Positions 1 through 12,289 of a stretch of DNA of 59,306 nucleotides are shown here, piece after piece. The stretch comes from Rhynchobatus australiae (Eukaryota): positions 60,416,069-60,475,374 of the forward strand of contig JAUZTB010000076.1 of the NCBI GenBank assembly GCA_034780895.1. Reading direction: 5' to 3'. Position numbers and translations under genes: made by a program. A model generated the notes under the pieces. It ran no database searches. It was not told where the DNA came from and saw nothing but the letters and a program-made list of their open reading frames with translations. Position 1 is the first letter of the stretch. Each line of letters starts with the position of its first letter.

Positions 1-713
1 ACCACCAGATTGTTTCGTGAAGTTTGTAACAAAGGATTTTTGGCTTATAATGGTTATTGTGAGCATTATGAAAAATGTCATCCCAACGTGGATATTAAAG
101 TGGATGTAGTGCAGTGGATGAAAGAAGTTAGACTATCACACTATATCCTTTCATTTCACCAAATGTAGGTTTGATGCAGGCTGGTGTTGACAGGGTAGCT
201 AAGGAGAGGTTTGAATGTGCAACATATGATGCAGTTTTTATCTCCGAGTGGTCTCAGCTATCATGAAAGGCAGAGACAGCCAGTGGTGCATTACCAAAAG
301 AGCACTGGGAGGGAAGGCACTAAGTGAGATTGACAGTAGGAATGGCACTATTAGGAAAAGGGGGAGGCTGATGTCAGTCTGGACTGAAGAGGAAATTAAG
401 TTATTAGAACTGGAGAAGTTTGCAGGACAGAGAAGTAATAATGCGTTAGTAACCAGCTAAATCTAACAAACAGGTACCTGATAAAAGGCGCATGACTAAG
501 GTTAATAATAGGCATGCAGCTTTGGTTAGTAACTCTGTTGAGTTGGACAAGGATGATAAAGTTGAAGAGTGTAGTGTGGATAATACATATAATGGGGGAG
601 TAGTAATGAGACAGATATTGTAAGTGAGGAAATTGGTAAAGGAGCTCAACTTAGGCTGGAGATACCCTCCCTTATACAGGTTGAGGAACAGTGTGTTCTA
701 ATTCTAGTAGTAG

Positions 714-946
714 TGTAGTGACCCGTACTCGTGTGTGTCGAACTGCCATCGATGGCCGCGGGCACATTGCGATCAGCCCGCAAGGCGGGCCTTCCGGTGC
801 GGACCTGACAACACATCCGCCAAAAGGCCCCTCGGGTACTTTTGTGCGCGCACGCGCGCCTTTTGTTTCTCTGAGTAAAGTGTGCTTCAATCCAGCCTCC
901 ATGTCTCCGAATCATCCCTTGTGGAAATGCGTCACGTACGGCCACA
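714..946 (+). repeat. 5' LTR (233 bp)
   Basis: Starts TGTAGTGACC and ends GGCCACA. Aligns with 4682-4924. AGTAAA poly(A)-like signal at 874-879. Confidence 0.95.
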
Positions 947-948
947 TT

Positions 949-961
949 TGGTGACCCCGAC
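949..961 (+). promoter_or_regulatory. Primer-binding site, tRNA-Trp
   Basis: TGGTGACCCCGAC lies 2 nt after the LTR end. It is complementary to the 3' end of tRNA-Trp and matches the first 13 nt of the avian sarcoma/leukosis virus PBS. Confidence 0.9.
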
Positions 962-990
962 ACTTCCAGACAGCATCTGGGATCCACGAC

Positions 991-1692
991 ATGAGTTCCA
1001 GCGACTTGCACAACGCAGTCTCGTTCAATCTCCCGATGTTCTGGGCCGCCCAGCCCCACGTGTGGTTTGAGCAGGCAGAGGCCCAGTTCAGCATCAGAGA
1101 CATTACAGCCGACACCACACTGTACTACTACGCGGTCAGCGCGCTCGACCAGGACACGGTGGGCCGGATCATCGATTTCCTGCACCGACCACCAGCAGAG
1201 GACAGGTACACTAAAATTAAGGCGCTCCTCATCCGCACCTTCGGGCTTTCCAGCCGAGAACGGACCATGCAACTCCTGCACATGGATGGTCTGGGCGACC
1301 GCAAGCCATCCAAATTGATGAACGATATGCTGGCACTCATGGACGGCCATAAGCTGTGCTTTTTATTCGAACAATTGTTCCTTGAGCAACTGCCAGAGGA
1401 ACTTTGCCCCTTCCTCGCGGGCGAGGATTTCAGCAACCCCCACAGACTCTCACCCCGTGCCGACATCTTGTGGCAGAGTAAGCAGCAGGGCGCGGCTTCT
1501 ATCTGCCTAACCATGACTGCGCAGCCCAAGCCCACGCCCAAAGCCCCACAACCGGAGCCACCGGGGCCTGCGAGGGACCAGGAGGAAGGCTCGGACCAAT
1601 TGTGTTTTTACCATCAGAGACGGGGATCGAACGTGCGCTGCTGCTGCCTGCCATGTTCCTACCAGGGAAACGCCAGGGCCGGCTGTCGCTTG
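991..1692 (+). CDS. gag: Gag of the Gypsy element (CHCC zinc knuckle); the natural stop is probably mutated, so the ORF track extends to 1908
   Basis: N-terminal LPMFWAAQPHVWFEQAEAQF, LGDRKPSKLM, and C-x2-H-x9-C-x3-C (CFYHQRRGSNVRCCCLPC). The end coordinate is inferred. Confidence 0.85.
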
Positions 1693-1710
1693 TGGCTTCG
1701 ACAGCCGGCC
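1665..1710 (+). promoter_or_regulatory. -1 programmed ribosomal frameshift signal (slippery G GGA AAC + 12-bp hairpin)
   Basis: GGGAAAC at 1665-1671 is in gag phase. A 5-nt spacer precedes the perfect stem GGCCGGCTGTCG (1677-1688)/CGACAGCCGGCC (1699-1710). The -1 frame is the protease frame. Confidence 0.85.
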
Positions 1711-4620
1711 ATCACGACAGCCTCCTTTTCCTTTGGGANNNNNNNNNNNNNNNNNNNNNNNNNNNNNNNNNNNNNNNNNNNNNNNNNNNNNNNNNNNNNN
1801 NNNNNNNNNNNNNNNNNNNNNNNNNNNNNNNNNNNNNNCGGACGTACGGCACGTGTACCATCCTGCTGCGTTTCAGACCCAGCTCTTTCACCTGGACCTT
1901 CACGGTAGCAGCAGTATCACGGCCATTACTAGGGGCGGATTTCCTACGGGCCAACCGCCTTCTGGTCGACCTGAAGGGCTGACGTTTGGTCTACGCAGAG
2001 ACTTTCCAGACATTCCAGCTCGGGGATGCCCATGTCCCGGCCCTCCACCTGGACTCCGTCACACTCTCGGGTGACGAGTTCGGGTTCTGGCTGATTTCCC
2101 CTCTATCATCACTCCACAGTTCTCCACCACCAGCCCCAAGCACGGCGTGCAGCATGACATCCCCACACAGCGGCCACCACTGCACGCCCGAGCCTGTAGG
2201 CTCCCACCCAACAAGCTCCACCTCACCAAGGAGGAGTTTCGGAAAGTGGAGGAGTCATCTAGCACTCTGACAGCTCTTTGAGCATCGCCGCTGCATATGG
2301 TGCCCAAGGTCGCCGGGGGTTGGAGGCCCTGCGGGGACTACAGGAGGCTCAGTGATGCCACCGCTGCCAATCGATATCCGGTGCTTCACATCCAGGACTT
2401 CACGGTGAACCTGCACGGGGCGACCATCTTCTCAAAAATCAACCTTGTCCAGGGGTACCATCAGATCCCTGTACGCCCCGAGGACGTGCCCAAGACAGAC
2501 CTCATCACCCCCTTCGGGCGATTCGAATTTCCCTGGATGCCCTTCGGCCTCAAGAACGCCACCCAGACTTTCCAGAGACTCATAGATTCGGTAGGGCGAG
2601 GCCTGGATTTTGCTTTTATCTACCTGGATGACATCCTGGTGGGCAGCCAGTCACGCCATGAGCACATGGCACATCTGCACCAGCTCCGCCAATGCCTGAG
2701 CGACCACGGAATGGCAATTAACCCGGTGAAGTGCCAGCTTGGGCTGCAGGAGTTCGACTTCTTGGGCCACAGAGTAAACCAGCACAGCGCCGCCCCTGCT
2801 ACTGGACAAAGTCCAGGCTATCCGCCAGTTCCCCAAACCCAGCACGGTCAAGGGCCTGCAAGAGTTTGTGGGGATGGTGAATTTCTACCATCGTTTCGTG
2901 CCAGTGGCGGCGCGCATCATGAGGCCCCTGTTCAGTCTGATGGCTGGGAAGGCCAAAGAGGTGGCATGGGACGCGGAATCCATGGAGGCTTTCGAGCGGA
3001 CCAAAGAGGCTTTGGCGAGAGCGACCCTCCTGGTACACCCGAGAGTCGACGTGCCCACGGCGCTCACAGTCAACGCCTCCGACACGGCGGTCAGCAGGGT
3101 CCTGGAGCAGCTCGTCGAGGGCAAATGGCAGCTGCTCGCCTTTTCCAGCCGTCACCTGCAACCACCAGAGGTTAAATACAGCGCTTTCAACAGGGAGTTG
3201 CTAGCGCTCTACCTGGCGATTTGGCACTTCCAGTATATCCGTCATCTATACGGACCACAAACCCCTCACCTTCGCTTTCACGAAAGTATTGGACCCGTGG
3301 TTGGCCCAACAACAGAGGCACCTCTCTTTCATCTCGGAATTCACCACAGACGTCTGACACATTGCAGGAAAGAACAACGTGGTTGCCGACATGCTCTCCC
3401 GCCCCCCACATCCACTCAATGGCCACAGCGTCCCCGGGCATCGACTACGTGGGGTGGCGCAAGCACAGCAGGCGGACACCAAGATCCTGGCATACCGCAC
3501 AACCATTTTGGGGCTCCAGTTGGAGGACATCCCTGTCTGCCCGGTGTCAGTTCGACTCCTGTGCTACACGTCCACTGGCAGGCCCCAGCCCGTGGTGCCA
3601 GCAGTGTGGAGGAGACGGGTGTTTGACACACTGCACGGCCTGGCACACCTGTCCATTCGGGCGTCTATCAAACTGGTAGCAGACAAATTCATTTGGCACG
3701 GCTTGCGGAAGCAGGTCGGGCACTGGGCCAGGACTTGCAATACACTGCCAAACATCCAAAGCCCAGCGGCACGTGAAGGCCCCCCTCCAGCAATTCCAGC
3801 CCATGCTCGGGAGGTTCCGGCACATCCACATTGACATCGTCGGCCCCCTACCGGTCTCCCAGGGCGGCAGGTACATCTTCACCATGGTCGACAGGTTCAC
3901 CAGGTGGCCAGAGGCCGTGCCGTTGGCAGACACATCCACTGAGTCCTGCGCCAGGATGCTCATTGCGAATTGGATCGCCAGGTTCAGGCTGCCGGCGGAC
4001 ATCACCTCTGACAGAGGTGCACAATTCACGTCTAGTTTGTGGACAGCACTGGCACAACTTTTGGGCACCCGACTACACCACACCATGGCATACCACCCTG
4101 AGTCCAACGGCCTGGTCGAGCGGTTCCACAGGCACCTCAAGTCAGCACCAAAGGTGCGCCTCCAGGGACCCAACTGGACTGATGAGCTTCCCTGGGTCTT
4201 ACGGGGCATCTGCACGGCCCCCAAGGAAGACCTGTGCACCTCCTTGGCGGAGTTGGTCTACAGCACCCCCTGACAGTCCCAGGTGAGTTCGTACCAGAGA
4301 CCCAAGACCCAGCAGGGACACCAGCAGAGGTGTTAACGAGGCTGCGGGACAGGGTGGGGACCATGGCACCAGTCCCCACCTCCAGACATGGGTCAACACC
4401 ATCCTTTATCCCCAAGGACCTCCAGGACTGCAAATAAGTGTTCATTCGCAGGGACATGCACAAGGCACCACTTCAGGGTGCTCTGGCACAACGGCTCTAC
4501 ATATGTTGTCGAAGTGGGTGGCCGAGAAGAAACTTTCACAGTGGACTGCCTTAAACCGGCATATGTGGACATCGAGCAGCCGGTGCAGGCACCCGCACCC
4601 TGCCGGTGGGGCAGGCCACC
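1665..4620 (+). pseudogene. pol: Pol polyprotein (protease-RT-RNase H-integrase), broken by stops and frameshifts
   Basis: PLLGADFL (protease C-terminal part; the active site falls in the N gap 1739-1838). RT: WRPCGDYRRL, MPFGLKNA, YLDD (2621-2632). RNase H: [N]ASD, YSAFNRELLA, VADMLSR. Integrase: HIDIVGPLP, DRFTRWPEA, TSDRGAQF, YHPESNGLVERFHR. Confidence 0.93.
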
Positions 4621-4669
4621 CAAGAAGGACACGCAGACTGGGGGCTCCACATGCCCGATGGGCATTTCT

Positions 4670-4681
4670 GGGGTGGCGGGG
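4670..4681 (+). promoter_or_regulatory. Polypurine tract
   Basis: GGGGTGGCGGGG immediately before the 3' LTR. Confidence 0.8.
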
Positions 4682-4924
4682 TGTAGCGACCTGTACTCAG
4701 GCGTGTTGAACCACCATTGGTAGCTGCAGATGGACGCGCAGGGGCATGTTGTGATCGGCCTGCAGGGCGGGCCTTCCGGCAGGGACCTAGCATCACGTCT
4801 GCCAAAAGGGCCCTCGGGTACTTTTGCGTGCACGCGCCTTTTGTTTCTCTGAGTAAAGTGTGCTTCGATCTAGCCTCCATGTCTCCAAGTCTTCCCTTGC
4901 GGAAACGCATCGCCTACGGCTACA
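4682..4924 (+). repeat. 3' LTR (243 bp)
   Basis: Starts TGTAGCGACC and ends GGCTACA, followed by TSD GTAG. AGTAAA at 4852-4857. Confidence 0.95.
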
Positions 4925-7475
4925 GTAGCTCCATTTATCTGTCATAGTTTGTAAACAACACCGTGTTACTTGTGGATAAATGGGATTCTAAAAGCAATTC
5001 CTGCTGAGAGTTACTGAATAAAATCTCACAGTTGTTATTTGCGCTTGGGAAAAGGAAGTGAAGAAAGGTGTGATAAATAGGAAGACAACTAAAAGGTTAA
5101 ATATTCCCAATTCTGATGATGAAAGATTTGCCAGGTGTAAAGGGGAGTATTTAAGGGCACAACGCTGATTCAAAGAAAATAAGGTGGCATTGGCCAGACA
5201 ACTTATGGATGGTCCAGCTAGTGTTGATGTCCTTTGAATATTAGTAAATTTGAAGAATATTACAAAGGCAGATTTACTGTCAATAATAAGGCAGATATCA
5301 CAAAATTTAGCCCTCCGTTTTGCCTGGCTCTTATTAGATATGAGCATCAAGGAGGTAAAAGAAGCTATTGGTAATTTTAAGGACACAGTTGCTGGTCCAG
5401 GTGTCTTTCAATAGATTCAGTAAATTAGATATGGAGGTTAAGGCTAAGATGTACTCCTTGTGGATCAAGAGTAGGATGATACTATGCTACTTTAAGAATA
5501 GCTGCACCATTTTAATTCCCAAATCAGATGACCCAGTTAAACTTGAGAATGTCAATAACTGGAGGCCCATAACAACTGGGTCCACCTCACCGAAAACTTT
5601 CACTGAAATTCAATTCTCTCAAAATGACTAACCAAGATGATCTTAATTAAAGAACGGTTGAAGGGTTTCTTAATGGCTAACCCTGGCTGCAATCAAGATA
5701 TTGCTATTTTAAATAATCTTTCAACTGGGTCTAAAAAATATTTTAAAAATCACCACAGATTTTTATTGACTTGGGTAAAGCCTTTGACTGGGTTGAACAC
5801 AAACTAATTAGCAAGACATTATGTCGGTTATGGTCTGCAAGGATTTTACTGAGTTAGTTTCAGATCTTTATTCCGAATGTTCCACTTTTATCGAAGTTAG
5901 GACTGGTAAGACTGCTCCCATTTTAATTGAAGTGGAGTTAAGCAAGGCATTCTGCTTTCAACCATTTTATTTAATTGTATAATGGACTTATTATTATGTT
6001 TATTAGAGCAAAATGGGAATGGTTTTATCTCAATGGTTTTGACATGTCATGTGCAGAACTTGCCTTTGCTGTTGATGTTGCATTAATTAGCAACTATCCC
6101 AAGGGCATGGCTAGAAACCTTAAAATTGGTGAGAAGTTTTGCAGTAGGACAGGTTTAGAAATCAATACTAAAAAGAACTGCTGGTTTTCCCATGACAGTC
6201 CAAAATCCAAGTTTTATTCATAACAATAGTGAGAAATGGAAGATCAAAAACGATGAGCGTCACTTTATTGGTCATGTGAAAAATACCTGGGAGCACGGAT
6301 TGGGGGTTTTAGTTAAGAATTTAAAAGTAAATTAGTTCAATAGTCTGCCAGTTTAGATAAAGCTAAGCTTAAACTGAAACAGAAAGTAGAGATTTTAAGA
6401 GTTTTTGTGATCCCTTGTCTATACTATTCATTAATGTTAAATGAGGCATCACAAAATATCCTAGTTAGTTTGGATGAAGTAATCCAAAGTTCTGTCAAGA
6501 AATTTTTAAACCTACCACCCTGTGTTAACAATGGTCTATTATAGTCAAGAGCCTGTGATGGGAGGTCTGAAAATTCTAAAACTGAAAACACCAATACCCA
6601 TCCCTCTTGTGAGTATACTGGAAGGTTTTACTAAAGCCACTGATAAACTGGACCCAACTCCATTTAAGTTTGCGGGGACAGATTTATCAGATTAAATTAG
6701 ATCGTATATGGGATTCAAATGTCTTGGTGATGATGGTGTGAATTTGGATAGTGTTTCAGTTGGGGGTCCTCATGATAATGTCATCATCTCGAGGAACCTT
6801 AATTGGAGAGATTTAAAGAGTTTGAGTGTTGGATGTGATTTCCTCAGCAAGGGGTCGGGGTGAAGAGTTTTAAAAATGTCATTTTTAAAACTCTTCACCC
6901 CGTGATTGGGTTAAGGGTTTTGGTCCTTTCATCAAGTCAGATTTTATTAATGCACTTTTAACCAGATCTAACACATACCCTGTGAAATGCAGTCTTGCTA
7001 CTGCAAGACCAAGCATGGACAGACGTGTAGGCATTATTTGGGTGGGGGGGGGGGGGTAAAAAAAACCTTTGGGCCATGTTTCTAGGCACTGCCCGGCAAT
7101 TAAAAAAAAGCCCTGGATAAAGAGGTATAACAGAAATTTAGATACGTTGGTTCATTTTTTAAAAACCTTGGTTTGCAGATGCAGATGGAAAAAGATGGAT
7201 TTGTGATGCCATTTTTGATAAGGGAAATACCTCTGTTATTGTTGACATCATAACAGCAACTCCTTGGACAAGGCTCTCAGTGAGAAACACAGAAATATAA
7301 GCATTTAGAAGCCATGATTAAGGAGTGTTACTCAGTGGAGTTTGTTGGCTTTTTGTGGTTTTGTCAAGGGTGCCGGAGGAATTAGTCCCCTGAGAATGAT
7401 GATTGAGTTTCCTCGGGATCCCAAAATCTGAGAGGTTCTCCCCCCGGAGTTTCAAGTTCAGCACTTAAATCAATA

Positions 7476-7782
7476 AATTGGTTTATTATTGTCAAATGTA
7501 CTGAGGCACAGTGAAAAACTTTGTTTTGTATGCCATCCATGCAGATCATTTCATCACATCAGTACATCGAGGTAGTACAAGGGAAAAACAATAACAGAAT
7601 GCAGAATATAGCATTACAGTTATGGAGAAAGTTTAGTGCAGGTAGACAATAAAGTACAAGGCTGTGATGAGATAGACTATCAAGTCAGGAGTCCATCTTA
7701 TTGCACAAGAGGTCTGTTCAACAGTCTTATAACAGTGGATAGAAGCTGTCCTTGAGCCTGGTGGTACATGCTTTCAGACCTT
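7476..7782 (-). mobile_element. Rex1/Babar-like LINE 3' end
   Basis: The minus strand reads ..TTRLKDSFYP..RLLN, then a 3' UTR ending AATAATAAACCAATT. Same family as 8870-9096. Confidence 0.65.
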
Positions 7783-8869: not shown

Positions 8870-9096
8870 TTCCATAATCTTGATCTCTCAATCTCCCTTG
8901 TCGTAACCCTTGCACCTTATCGTTGACCTGCACTGCACTTTCTCTATAACTGTAACACTATATTCTACATTCTGTTATTGCTTTTCCCTTTGTACTGCCT
9001 TGTACTTATGTTTTGAAATGATCTTTAATGGATGGCATGCAAAACAAAAGTTTTTCACTGTAGCCTGGTACGTGTGACAATAATAAATCAATTACC
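8870..9096 (+). mobile_element. Rex1/Babar-like LINE 3' UTR fragment
   Basis: Reverse-complement match to ~7476-7700; ends GTGACAATAATAAATCAATT. Confidence 0.65.
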
Positions 9097-9894: not shown

Positions 9895-10026
9895 CTTCTC
9901 TGCGTGTTTACTCTCCTCACGAATTTGGTCAGTCTCATCATCTTCTAAGTACTGTCCATTATTCAGAACCCAAGCAGCTGTCCTCTCCACTGGTGACATG
10001 GTGGCAGTCTCCACTGGTGACTGAAC
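9895..10026 (-). CDS. RASAL2: RASAL2 coding exon (VQSPVETATMSPVERTAAWVLNNGQY...KHAEK), 132 nt, phase 0-0
   Basis: tgcag acceptor and GTAGGT donor. ERTAAWVLNNGQY is the conserved RASAL2/SynGAP-family C-terminal motif. Too short for the ORF track. Confidence 0.95.
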
Positions 10027-11131
10027 CTGCATTGAATAAAGTCAGGTGACTAACTCAAACTTCTATACATTGCCAGAATGTCACAGTCACAATCTACAGG
10101 CTCAAACATCATCCATTTTCTTGCAGTTCCTCTCTTGCCCTCATTGTGTTACTCCAAGTAACAGGACTACGCACAGGCTGCAAATGAAGCAAACAATACC
10201 AAAGAACTGTAGAAAATATTTTATAATCATCACTTCCTCAGATAATTGATGCTCACAAGGCCATGCACTAGAATATTTCAGTGGAAACAGCTAATATTCT
10301 CCTCAGAGCGTGGGGCTTATTGTTGACAAAAGCTAAGTAACACTGAAATTACAAGTGCAGTGTGTTATTACATTGATATTAACATTTCTTTTTCTCAATG
10401 CATTTATTAAACTTGTGGTGGAGAGGGGATATGTTGTAGTCATCTAATTGAAGAATGTCAGTACTAGAAGTTTGCTTTTGCATGAATAACCTCTTCTACG
10501 TTCTCACACCAGGTATAACAGGGGTTAAGTTCAACAAGTAGTGCTGTAATTTTATTTTAAGATCAGCACTGTTTCTGCACCAGTGTAACCTGCACCACCT
10601 GCNNNNNNNNNNGATTCAGATTTCCAGATATAGTCATGGCATGGATAGATCTACATCTATCGTAAGGTGGAAACCTGCGCACTTTCATTAAAATAGGATC
10701 CCTGCAGCTATACAAGCCAATTTACATTACTCTGGAGCTAGTATGTATTCAATTTACATGTCTGAGTTGAAAAATTATGTGGCTTGAAACTATGCAACCT
10801 CTCCAGAGAATGAGGATGAACATGAACGAGAGAAAAAGCAGATGGAGGAAGTATATGGAATGAAACCTATCAAGGTTCCTTCTTCTTGCTGCTGCTAAGC
10901 AACTCTAATCACACTAAAGCAGACATGCTGAGTGCAGCACCAGTTGCTTGCTATAACTCGCCTGGCAATTCTCACACTGATGAATGGCAGCTTAGGTGAA
11001 GCATCTACAGAATAGCACTCCAGCAGAAACTGCCATAATCCTCAGGAAGGAGCTCCCAGTAAAGTCAACAAACAAAACAGCTGATGAAAAACAGGGGCTG
11101 CAGTGACAGCAGCTTGGAGACGCTTCCTCAC

Positions 11132-12008
11132 CTGGTGTGTTTGCTGCTGTCTATGTACTGCCCGGACTTTGGGCACAGGACTTTCTCCTTTCGAAGAAGT
11201 TGATGGTTGCCGTGAGCGGTTTTCATTGTGTGGTGGCTCAGGTGACGTAGATGGTAATCCTGTCATGCTACCCGTGCTTCTCTGCGATGCACTCAGAGGT
11301 AACGAATGTGGTGCTTTCACTCGGCCGCTGGAACCTGACAACTCTGTCCTACGGAGCTGTGAATGCCCAATGCTATTCTGCCGAGGCAACGCCACCGGGA
11401 GATTGTTCCTGTCTGGCATGGTGTGTCGTTTGGAGTAATCTTCACTGTATGCGCTGCGTTTGGCAAAATCCTCAATGCTGCTGTTACTGGGGCCACTCAG
11501 CTTGCTGATCAGCTCCTCGCTGTTGGTGTGGCTCCGCGAGCTTGTGGAACTCAGGTTCTCAGAACTGGAGTCCATACCGGCTTTGCTGCTTCCTGCTGGA
11601 GGGTTGTTCAGTTGGTAAACAGGGTTTTGGAAAGACAGAGGCTGAAGGCTGCTCTGTTGGCTCAGAGCTGGATGCAGAGGCCTGCGGATCTGAGGGGCAC
11701 TCTGCGCCCCACTCTGCACCTCTCGCAGCTGCTTGATGTTTGCTGTATGTGTAATTGAGGCCTGGCTGCCAGGGTGCCGGACTGGCACACTGGAAACAAC
11801 TGGAGCACTACTTATTGCCTGAGTCACAGCAGTGCTCTGCAGATCTACGAGTGATACGCTCCTGCCGTTATGGAGGGTGGACTCTTCTTCATCCCTGTCA
11901 GAGTAAGTCATACTGTGTGTGGAGGCTGGCTGACCTGGGAAGTGCTGCTTGCTGTGGAAAAATGCTTCAACGTTTTCTTGAGTTGGAGACTGCAATTGTT
12001 GCACATCA
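11132..12008 (-). CDS. RASAL2: RASAL2 large Ser-rich exon, 877 nt, phase 2-0
   Basis: tttcag acceptor and GTGAGG donor. NGRSVSLVDLQ, LQPLSFQNPVY, LPRQNS and SPVPKVRA match RASAL2. Confidence 0.96.
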
Positions 12009-12289
12009 CTGAAATAAAAATATATTTTTTGTTTGCATATTCACACTTCTTAAAAAAACATTTATTTCCAAACTTATTTATTAATATTTATTTATACATT
12101 TATTCTCTATCCAACTCTTCAGTTCCCTTATACCAGATATTGTTGGTTATTCACTGGTCGGGGTGGCCTGTAATTGACCAGTTGCTGAGTTCTGCTGCCT
12201 TCACAGAGCATATGGAATTAGGGGAGATGATAAAAAGCTGGACATCGGATAACTGTTGATGCAATGTGATGAGAAGTGTACAAGTAAGA

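Follow-up and report, generated by a model that had tools for sequence, protein, structure and literature searches.

A dead A-clade R2 retrotransposon in an intron of Rhynchobatus australiae, probably an off-target copy of an rDNA-resident element

Introduction

R2 retrotransposons normally insert only into ribosomal RNA genes. The window studied here, a stretch of 59,306 nt from Rhynchobatus australiae (GCA_034780895.1, contig JAUZTB010000076.1, positions 60,416,069 to 60,475,374), was read from its sequence alone as carrying an R2 element antisense within an intron of a protein-coding gene, which raised the question of how an element of this kind came to lie there. Two answers had been proposed, namely a rare ectopic insertion, or membership of a dispersed family that had lost its 28S specificity. 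In this work, the element was reconstructed, its host intron was delimited, and its relatives in the same genome were compared by their junctions, phylogeny and coding constraint.

Results

Identity and decay of the window element

Three-frame translation shows R2-like pieces in both halves of the element (window 1-713 and 4929-7441), which are separated, in the R2 linker, by a GC-rich Ty3/gypsy-type element (Table 1). Because the latter is bordered by a GTAG target duplication, the excision proposed by the sequence-only reading (714-4928, the element plus one duplication copy) is right. A frameshift-aware alignment of the joined halves, as that reading had advised, covers residues 150-1254 of R2-1_CPu (34.8% over 1017 codons) with a score of 881 against 37-46 for shuffled sequences (8/8), and reveals 23 frameshifts and 10 stops. 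R2-1_CPu was also the top-scoring reference (862, next 732) among the 14 tested of 120 reference proteins; the protein used, GCC16572.1 (P0001), is a shark R2 that was assigned by eye to the R2-1_CPu row of Table S2 in PMC13188248.

Table 1. Features of the window (position 1 is its first base).
Feature	Position	Strand	Remarks
Zinc finger 3 remnant (CCHH)	11..81	+	all four ligands kept (C11, C25, H64, H79), one frameshift
Zinc finger 2 remnant (CCHC)	105..166	+	C105, H152, C164 kept; second Cys not recovered
Zinc finger 1 remnant (CCHH)	216..279	+	C216, H262 kept; second Cys to Tyr (225), last His to Gln (277)
Myb remnant (WTEEE...KQVPDKRR)	380..491	+	alignment to R2 references
GTAG target duplication, left copy	710..713	+	4 bp
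Decayed Ty3/gypsy-type LTR retrotransposon	714..4924	+	DUF7041, RVT_1, rve matches
LTRs of Ty3/gypsy element	714-946 and 4682-4924	+	84% identical over 229 columns, K2P 0.19
GTAG target duplication, right copy	4925..4928	+	4 bp
R2 N-terminal extension, reverse transcriptase and thumb	5022..6560	+	LIPKS..NWRPIT.GS 5512-5583, FAVD 6065-6076
CCHC knuckle remnant	7026..7092	+	second Cys to Tyr
Restriction-like endonuclease (RLE) remnant	7163..7441	+	PD to CD (7202-7207); without 3' UTR or 28S tail
Host exon ending KHAEK, followed by GT	9895..10026	-	exon end at 9895

The domains are individually recognisable. When compared with the genome's own R2, 9 of the 12 zinc-finger ligands are present at homologous positions, which bears out the CCHH/CCHC/CCHH arrangement first read from the sequence, and the Myb remnant aligns to the Myb domains of R2-1_CPu and of the near-intact R2 of this genome (L055, see below). 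The piece with the LIPKS..NWRPIT.GS motif matches R2Tg and PlaMe R2 in the PDB (9dou, 9nl3 and 9nl2; E 3e-8 to 5e-6) in three of its four matches, the reverse transcriptase (RT) active site reads FAVD, and a decayed CCHC and RLE follow the RT, the PD motif of the RLE having become CD. Pfam searches with 18 pieces from the R2 side of the window gave sub-threshold matches alone (RVT_1, E 0.01-0.04), and none of 41 candidates scored in a homolog search with a 66-residue window piece; the intact RT of the genome's own R2 was used as query in its place. A Utopia or NeSL identity, marked by the lack of a Myb domain and by U2 snRNA or other targets, does not fit the element: the Myb domain, which separates R2 from Utopia (PMC13188248), is present, and Rfam gave no match in the window or the 20 kb upstream.

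The domain set had been called complete. Its order (three zinc fingers, Myb, RT, CCHC, RLE) is indeed recognisable, but both ends are lost: the 5' end meets 1217 N directly upstream of position 1, and homology stops about 20 codons short of the reference end, before the stop codon. The R2 should end near 7441-7465 and not at 7468. No 28S target had been seen in the window, and motif, Rfam and profile searches (the latter for the 28S tail and both types of R2 3' UTR) agree in finding none there. Two local rearrangements were observed. Within the decayed R2, at 6856-6902, two perfectly inverted 23-bp arms enclose a loop of 1 nt, likely a local template switch after insertion; further, one repeat is present in two inverted copies at 7476-7661 and 8908-9093 (arms 81-89% complementary), the first adjoining the cut 3' end of the R2.

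The R2-bearing intron extends from 9894, past position 1 and across the 1217-N stretch, as far as the next exon (AG, then YEQEITKLK..., at L013:8259), about 1.7 kb upstream of position 1. The antisense placement in an intron extending past position 1, as originally proposed, is thus confirmed, with host exons flanking the R2 in order on the minus strand and their AG/GT borders kept. Pfam DAB2P_C matches lie in that next exon and in a large exon at 11045-12040; the host gene is a member of the DAB2IP/RASAL2/SynGAP family, putatively RASAL2 rather than DAB2IP or SynGAP. In the upstream sequence, whose inspection for 28S had been suggested, Rfam at the gathering threshold reported nothing over 20 kb, and the stretch directly 5' of position 1 consists of the 1217 N. 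At the same threshold Rfam also reported nothing in the window or at 37 loci, and since some of these carry short true 28S pieces, it is too blunt an instrument for stray fragments.

By its alignment, its PDB matches, its place in the protein trees described below and its position in a host intron, the window element is a real A-clade R2, dead, and outside rDNA, as had been claimed.

The living R2 and the dispersed copies

A search of the genome with R2 protein gave 35 matches. One (L055) is a near-intact three-finger R2 with one frameshift, joined to upstream 28S, and a matching 3' end (L076) is joined to TAGCCAAATG of 28S. In L055 the 28S bases from position -28 (GGCGGGA) pair with TCCCGCT behind the ribozyme core, the first pair being G-U; -28 is the commonest self-cleavage site of R2 ribozymes (PMC11331408; PMC3774820). 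The window R2 shares 39.6% amino-acid identity with this living element. L056 (G000:C69232:1-4745) is a young copy, with 87% identity to the living element; the 720 bases of its 5' part, -28 leader included, stand in inverted orientation beyond its 3' end. Another locus (L075, G000:C107:51147570-51147640) is a short 28S target fragment in non-rDNA, in which CTCTTAAGG is tandemly repeated immediately ahead of TAGCC.

An R2 ORF piece or UTR was present at 74 of the 88 distinct places fetched, by a mechanical criterion (tblastn E<=1e-5 or a profile match) under which some ORF-only matches may be other LINEs. A pattern for the leader matched at 14 places, and its reversed control at 2; of the 14, 11 begin at -28 with unrelated DNA upstream (6-19 of 53 flanking bases identical to 28S) and 10 of these continue into the R2 5' UTR, while the other three keep upstream 28S (51/51 and 53/53 identical). 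At the 3' side, a 74-mer of 28S below the R2 nick yielded 27 matches, all of which were examined and which are by design selected for a 28S tail. In 22 of them the fragment follows an R2 3' UTR or ORF, 18 of these being on scaffolds longer than 30 Mb, and in five no R2 can be recognised upstream (two carry the uninserted target and three show no recognised R2).

The shortest tails measure about 75 nt and the longest at least 436 nt, and the tails differ from their own majority by 1-22% at non-CpG sites. Among eight tails of the lineage termed B below, a single non-CpG change is common to at least three (188 columns; 32 CpG-type set aside); because these tails share almost no changes, they look as if each had been copied independently from live 28S genes. 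Tails are not universal. In a less tail-biased search with a UTR alone, 4 of 8 matches to the L084 query were tailed, the query itself being counted, and none of six new places with the lineage-B UTR found without tail selection (L125-L128, L132 and L133) has a long tail. By eye, TAGC stands at the junction in three of seven tailless ends that reach the end of the UTR; L018 and L074 end in this way. No poly(A) was seen in the 28S-tail ends inspected by eye. Off-target PRINT insertions in human cells, at 0.1-1%, are reported to share only the primer-complementary bases below the nick (PMC11371274), and the match of the three TAGC junctions to this signature favours off-target priming driven by R2. 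That the relatives arose from RNA is thus well supported.

Several composite copies were also encountered. L109 (G000:C104:5571-7197, minus) is a 1.4-kb internally deleted, non-autonomous R2 derivative with a -28 leader starting in unrelated DNA and at least 205 nt of 28S at its end; L141, L143 and L147 combine matches to the R2 5' and 3' UTRs in short spans; and in L164 (G000:C64:104748470-104748900) the 3' UTR of one R2 is followed without a break by the 5' UTR of a second, head-to-tail, outside rDNA. In a turtle, a 1291-residue R2 protein annotated as a PDE3B isoform (P0002, XP_065448199.1) lies on a 156-Mb contig and is possibly an intact R2 frame outside rDNA.

Two R2 lineages

In a 138-row FastTree the window R2 forms a clade with R2-1_CPu and the 28S element of the genome (support 1.00), and in the protein trees all copies fall in two groups among three-finger vertebrate R2s. 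The placement of the RT suggested by the sequence-only reading is therefore upheld in the sense of nesting among A-clade vertebrate R2s, the trees being built without an R4, NeSL, Utopia or Hero outgroup. The position of R2-1_CPu relative to the window's lineage had a support of 0.12 in the 138-row tree versus 96 in a tree anchored on R2-1_CPu itself.

A codon-anchored DNA tree of 27 rows, from which L059 and L023 were kept out for short overlap, separates lineage A (12 rows, including the living element) from lineage B (15 rows, including the window copy), each with support 100/100. Nine of the 15 lineage-B rows carry a 28S tail, and three further places with UTR and tail, whose ORF is too short (L081, L085 and L088), bring the tailed total to 12; in all 12, TAGCC... 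follows the R2 3' end at the canonical nick. Within B, the window copy is surrounded by tailed copies (L115 basal, L071, L100; sister clade 100/99). The test rejects the grouping of the six tailless or truncated B copies as a single clade (p-AU 1e-48), and a node of six members that unites the tailed L100 with the window copy, L016, L018, L074 and L118 has support 81/91; without L100, the remaining five, all lacking long tails, gave a p-AU for monophyly of 0.39. Among long relatives L018 is the nearest to the window copy (67%); it ends in CTATATTGTAA followed directly by TAGCCCA, in register with the tailed L071. The survey of copies and junctions that had been recommended found many R2 places, with 28S junctions common to both lineages.

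We found no -28 leader on any lineage-B copy, and no intact or rDNA-embedded lineage-B copy in this genome. One lineage-B copy (L155, G000:C71) has, by eye, a ribozyme-core-like motif resembling that of R2-1_CPu, which lies some 0.55 kb 5' of the zinc fingers of L155; no -28 leader is recognisable there, and the RNA of lineage B may have been cut at another point. Lineage B is likely a second, 28S-targeting R2 lineage seen only as fossils, and, because only broken copies were found, it appears to be extinct in this genome.

Pairwise dN/dS, computable for 17 of 25 pairs, was 0.15-0.61, mostly with dS above 1, and 0.16-0.49 between the window copy and its seven computable relatives, values in which the reference-anchored alignments may lower dN and draw decayed rows toward R2-1_CPu. 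Because of this constraint at high dS, the copies are best read, from their codons, as separate snapshots of long-lived working lineages and not as a burst; the test is silent on where the master copies lived. The frameshifts shared with the window copy are scattered (at most four positions per copy) and occur also with lineage-A copies, so there is no sign of duplication after decay. The nearest copies are 67-79% identical to the window R2 over aligned stretches; a 1.3-kb window probe gave at least 11 other matches (66-86%), a 3' probe at least three other places and a 5' probe at least one.

Discussion

As the window copy lacks its own 5' and 3' junctions, its origin has to be judged from its relatives. 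Since many of these, in the same genome, keep pieces of the 28S target, we read the window copy as an off-target copy of an rDNA-resident R2, with a probability of roughly two in three. The parent would have resided in a 28S rRNA gene and been co-transcribed with it, and an HDV-like ribozyme would have trimmed the 5' end of its RNA, which ended variably in downstream 28S. The R2 protein probably nicked a non-rDNA site in the intron; priming at the RNA end would have left a long tail, and priming through base-pairing between a TAGC-like site and the start of the 28S part would have left none. Having no rDNA promoter, such a copy would presumably have been dead on arrival. After insertion, it decayed, took the LTR insertion and lost its 3' end.

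Of the two answers first offered, the ectopic insertion keeps its mechanism, which is likely right, and loses its rarity, given an R2 part at 74 of 88 places. The retargeted family fares worse: it is weakened because both lineages carry the canonical 28S 3' junction, with tails that seem independently copied and long branches that appear to have been under purifying selection, and the living lineage has the -28 leader besides. A narrower form of it can be drawn, in which the window copy, L016, L018, L074 and L118 represent an extinct A-clade offshoot with loosened DNA recognition, a subgroup of lineage B that, once outside rDNA, was propagated by masters at scattered sites as a family of relaxed or absent specificity, comparable to R2NS of flatworms. 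The monophyly of these five members without long 28S tails is compatible with the data (p-AU 0.39), lineage B has shown no -28 leader, and R2 is present at many dispersed places, all of which such an offshoot would accommodate. Lineage B as a whole, however, is not made of copies flanked by unrelated DNA and free of junction 28S, and among the copies compared it includes no young near-identical dispersed ones (67-79%, dN/dS below 0.5), while described R2NS copies are more than 98% identical to their consensus (PMC5035012). The few close copies recovered by the window probes, the dN/dS of 0.16-0.49 between the window and seven relatives, and the TAGC ends of L018 and L074 also speak against the offshoot, and we regard it as improbable. 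Were it true, it would be the first such non-specific R2 family in a vertebrate, with sister lines that stayed 28S-specific.

The long tails imply priming away from the R2 3' junction, and upstream of 5 of the 27 28S fragments no R2 can be recognised (two of them with the uninserted target), which would suit a passive insertion of R2/28S co-transcript fragments by the machinery of another LINE, or by capture at DNA breaks, in place of the R2 protein. This is nonetheless an unlikely course, as 22 of the 27 fragments of this 28S stretch are joined to R2, poly(A) was absent from the tail ends inspected by eye, and the TAGC junctions resemble off-target priming by R2. We give very little credence to a relocation at the DNA level of an rDNA piece containing R2 (an orphon), or to a misassembly. 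The 1217 N directly upstream of the window R2 might hide either, and at one locus (L145) an R2 piece is indeed preceded by upstream 28S, of which 53 nt or more are kept; but relatives start sharply at the RNA cut site at -28, the host exons stand in order on both sides with AG/GT, Rfam is empty over 20 kb upstream, and the gap leaves no room for an rDNA unit after deduction of the 5' part that the element lacks, which measures about 0.7 kb in L055.

The off-target reading thus places the window copy within a larger record. In the literature we found no description of dispersed R2 in sharks or rays, whereas the logic of stray copies is already in print for fly R1/R2 and for bird R2 fragments. 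The single window copy is ordinary, and the set of strays is more useful. The A clade is the one employed for gene insertion into rDNA, and here an R2 of this clade has left off-target events in nature by the dozen. They preserve the 5' cut of the RNA at -28, show that native R2 RNA often extends hundreds of bases into 28S, and document, in fossil form only, a second R2 lineage. Compared with the empty sites at orthologous positions in related species, these strays would yield a natural off-target spectrum.

In comparison with known systems, the window R2 shares its domain order (three zinc fingers, Myb, RT, CCHC, RLE) with R2-1_CPu, R2Tg and PlaMe, and unlike them it is dead, has lost both ends and lies in a host intron. 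R2-1_CPu has 28S on both sides (Table S2 of PMC13188248), and the same source describes shark and ray R2s as 28S-inserted and places non-specific homologues in Porifera. Closer in condition are the dead R2 copies outside rDNA reported from five Drosophila species, together with R1 strays that carry 28S bases (PMC2718515), and the R2 copies of birds, severely mutated and with 28S fragments at their flanks (PMC5035012); as here, these are dead copies of rDNA families with upstream or downstream 28S bases. In contrast to these, the copies studied here number dozens, belong to two lineages, span a long time and start sharply at -28, and their tails reach at least 436 nt, versus up to 14 nt reported for fly R1 (PMC2718515). 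The roughly 70 strays are far above the few reported for Drosophila, which counts against our preferred reading. R2-like elements outside rDNA, the trait shared with the window copy, are also represented by two non-specific flatworm families, R2NS-1_SMed and R2NS-1_CSi (PMC5035012), by the Porifera homologues and by the non-specific, R2-like BLAG elements of a cockroach (PMC7650587). Those elements are of the D or C clade or basal, and both R2NS families have young, near-identical copies, whereas the lineage described here is A-clade and old, and many of its members keep the canonical 28S junction.
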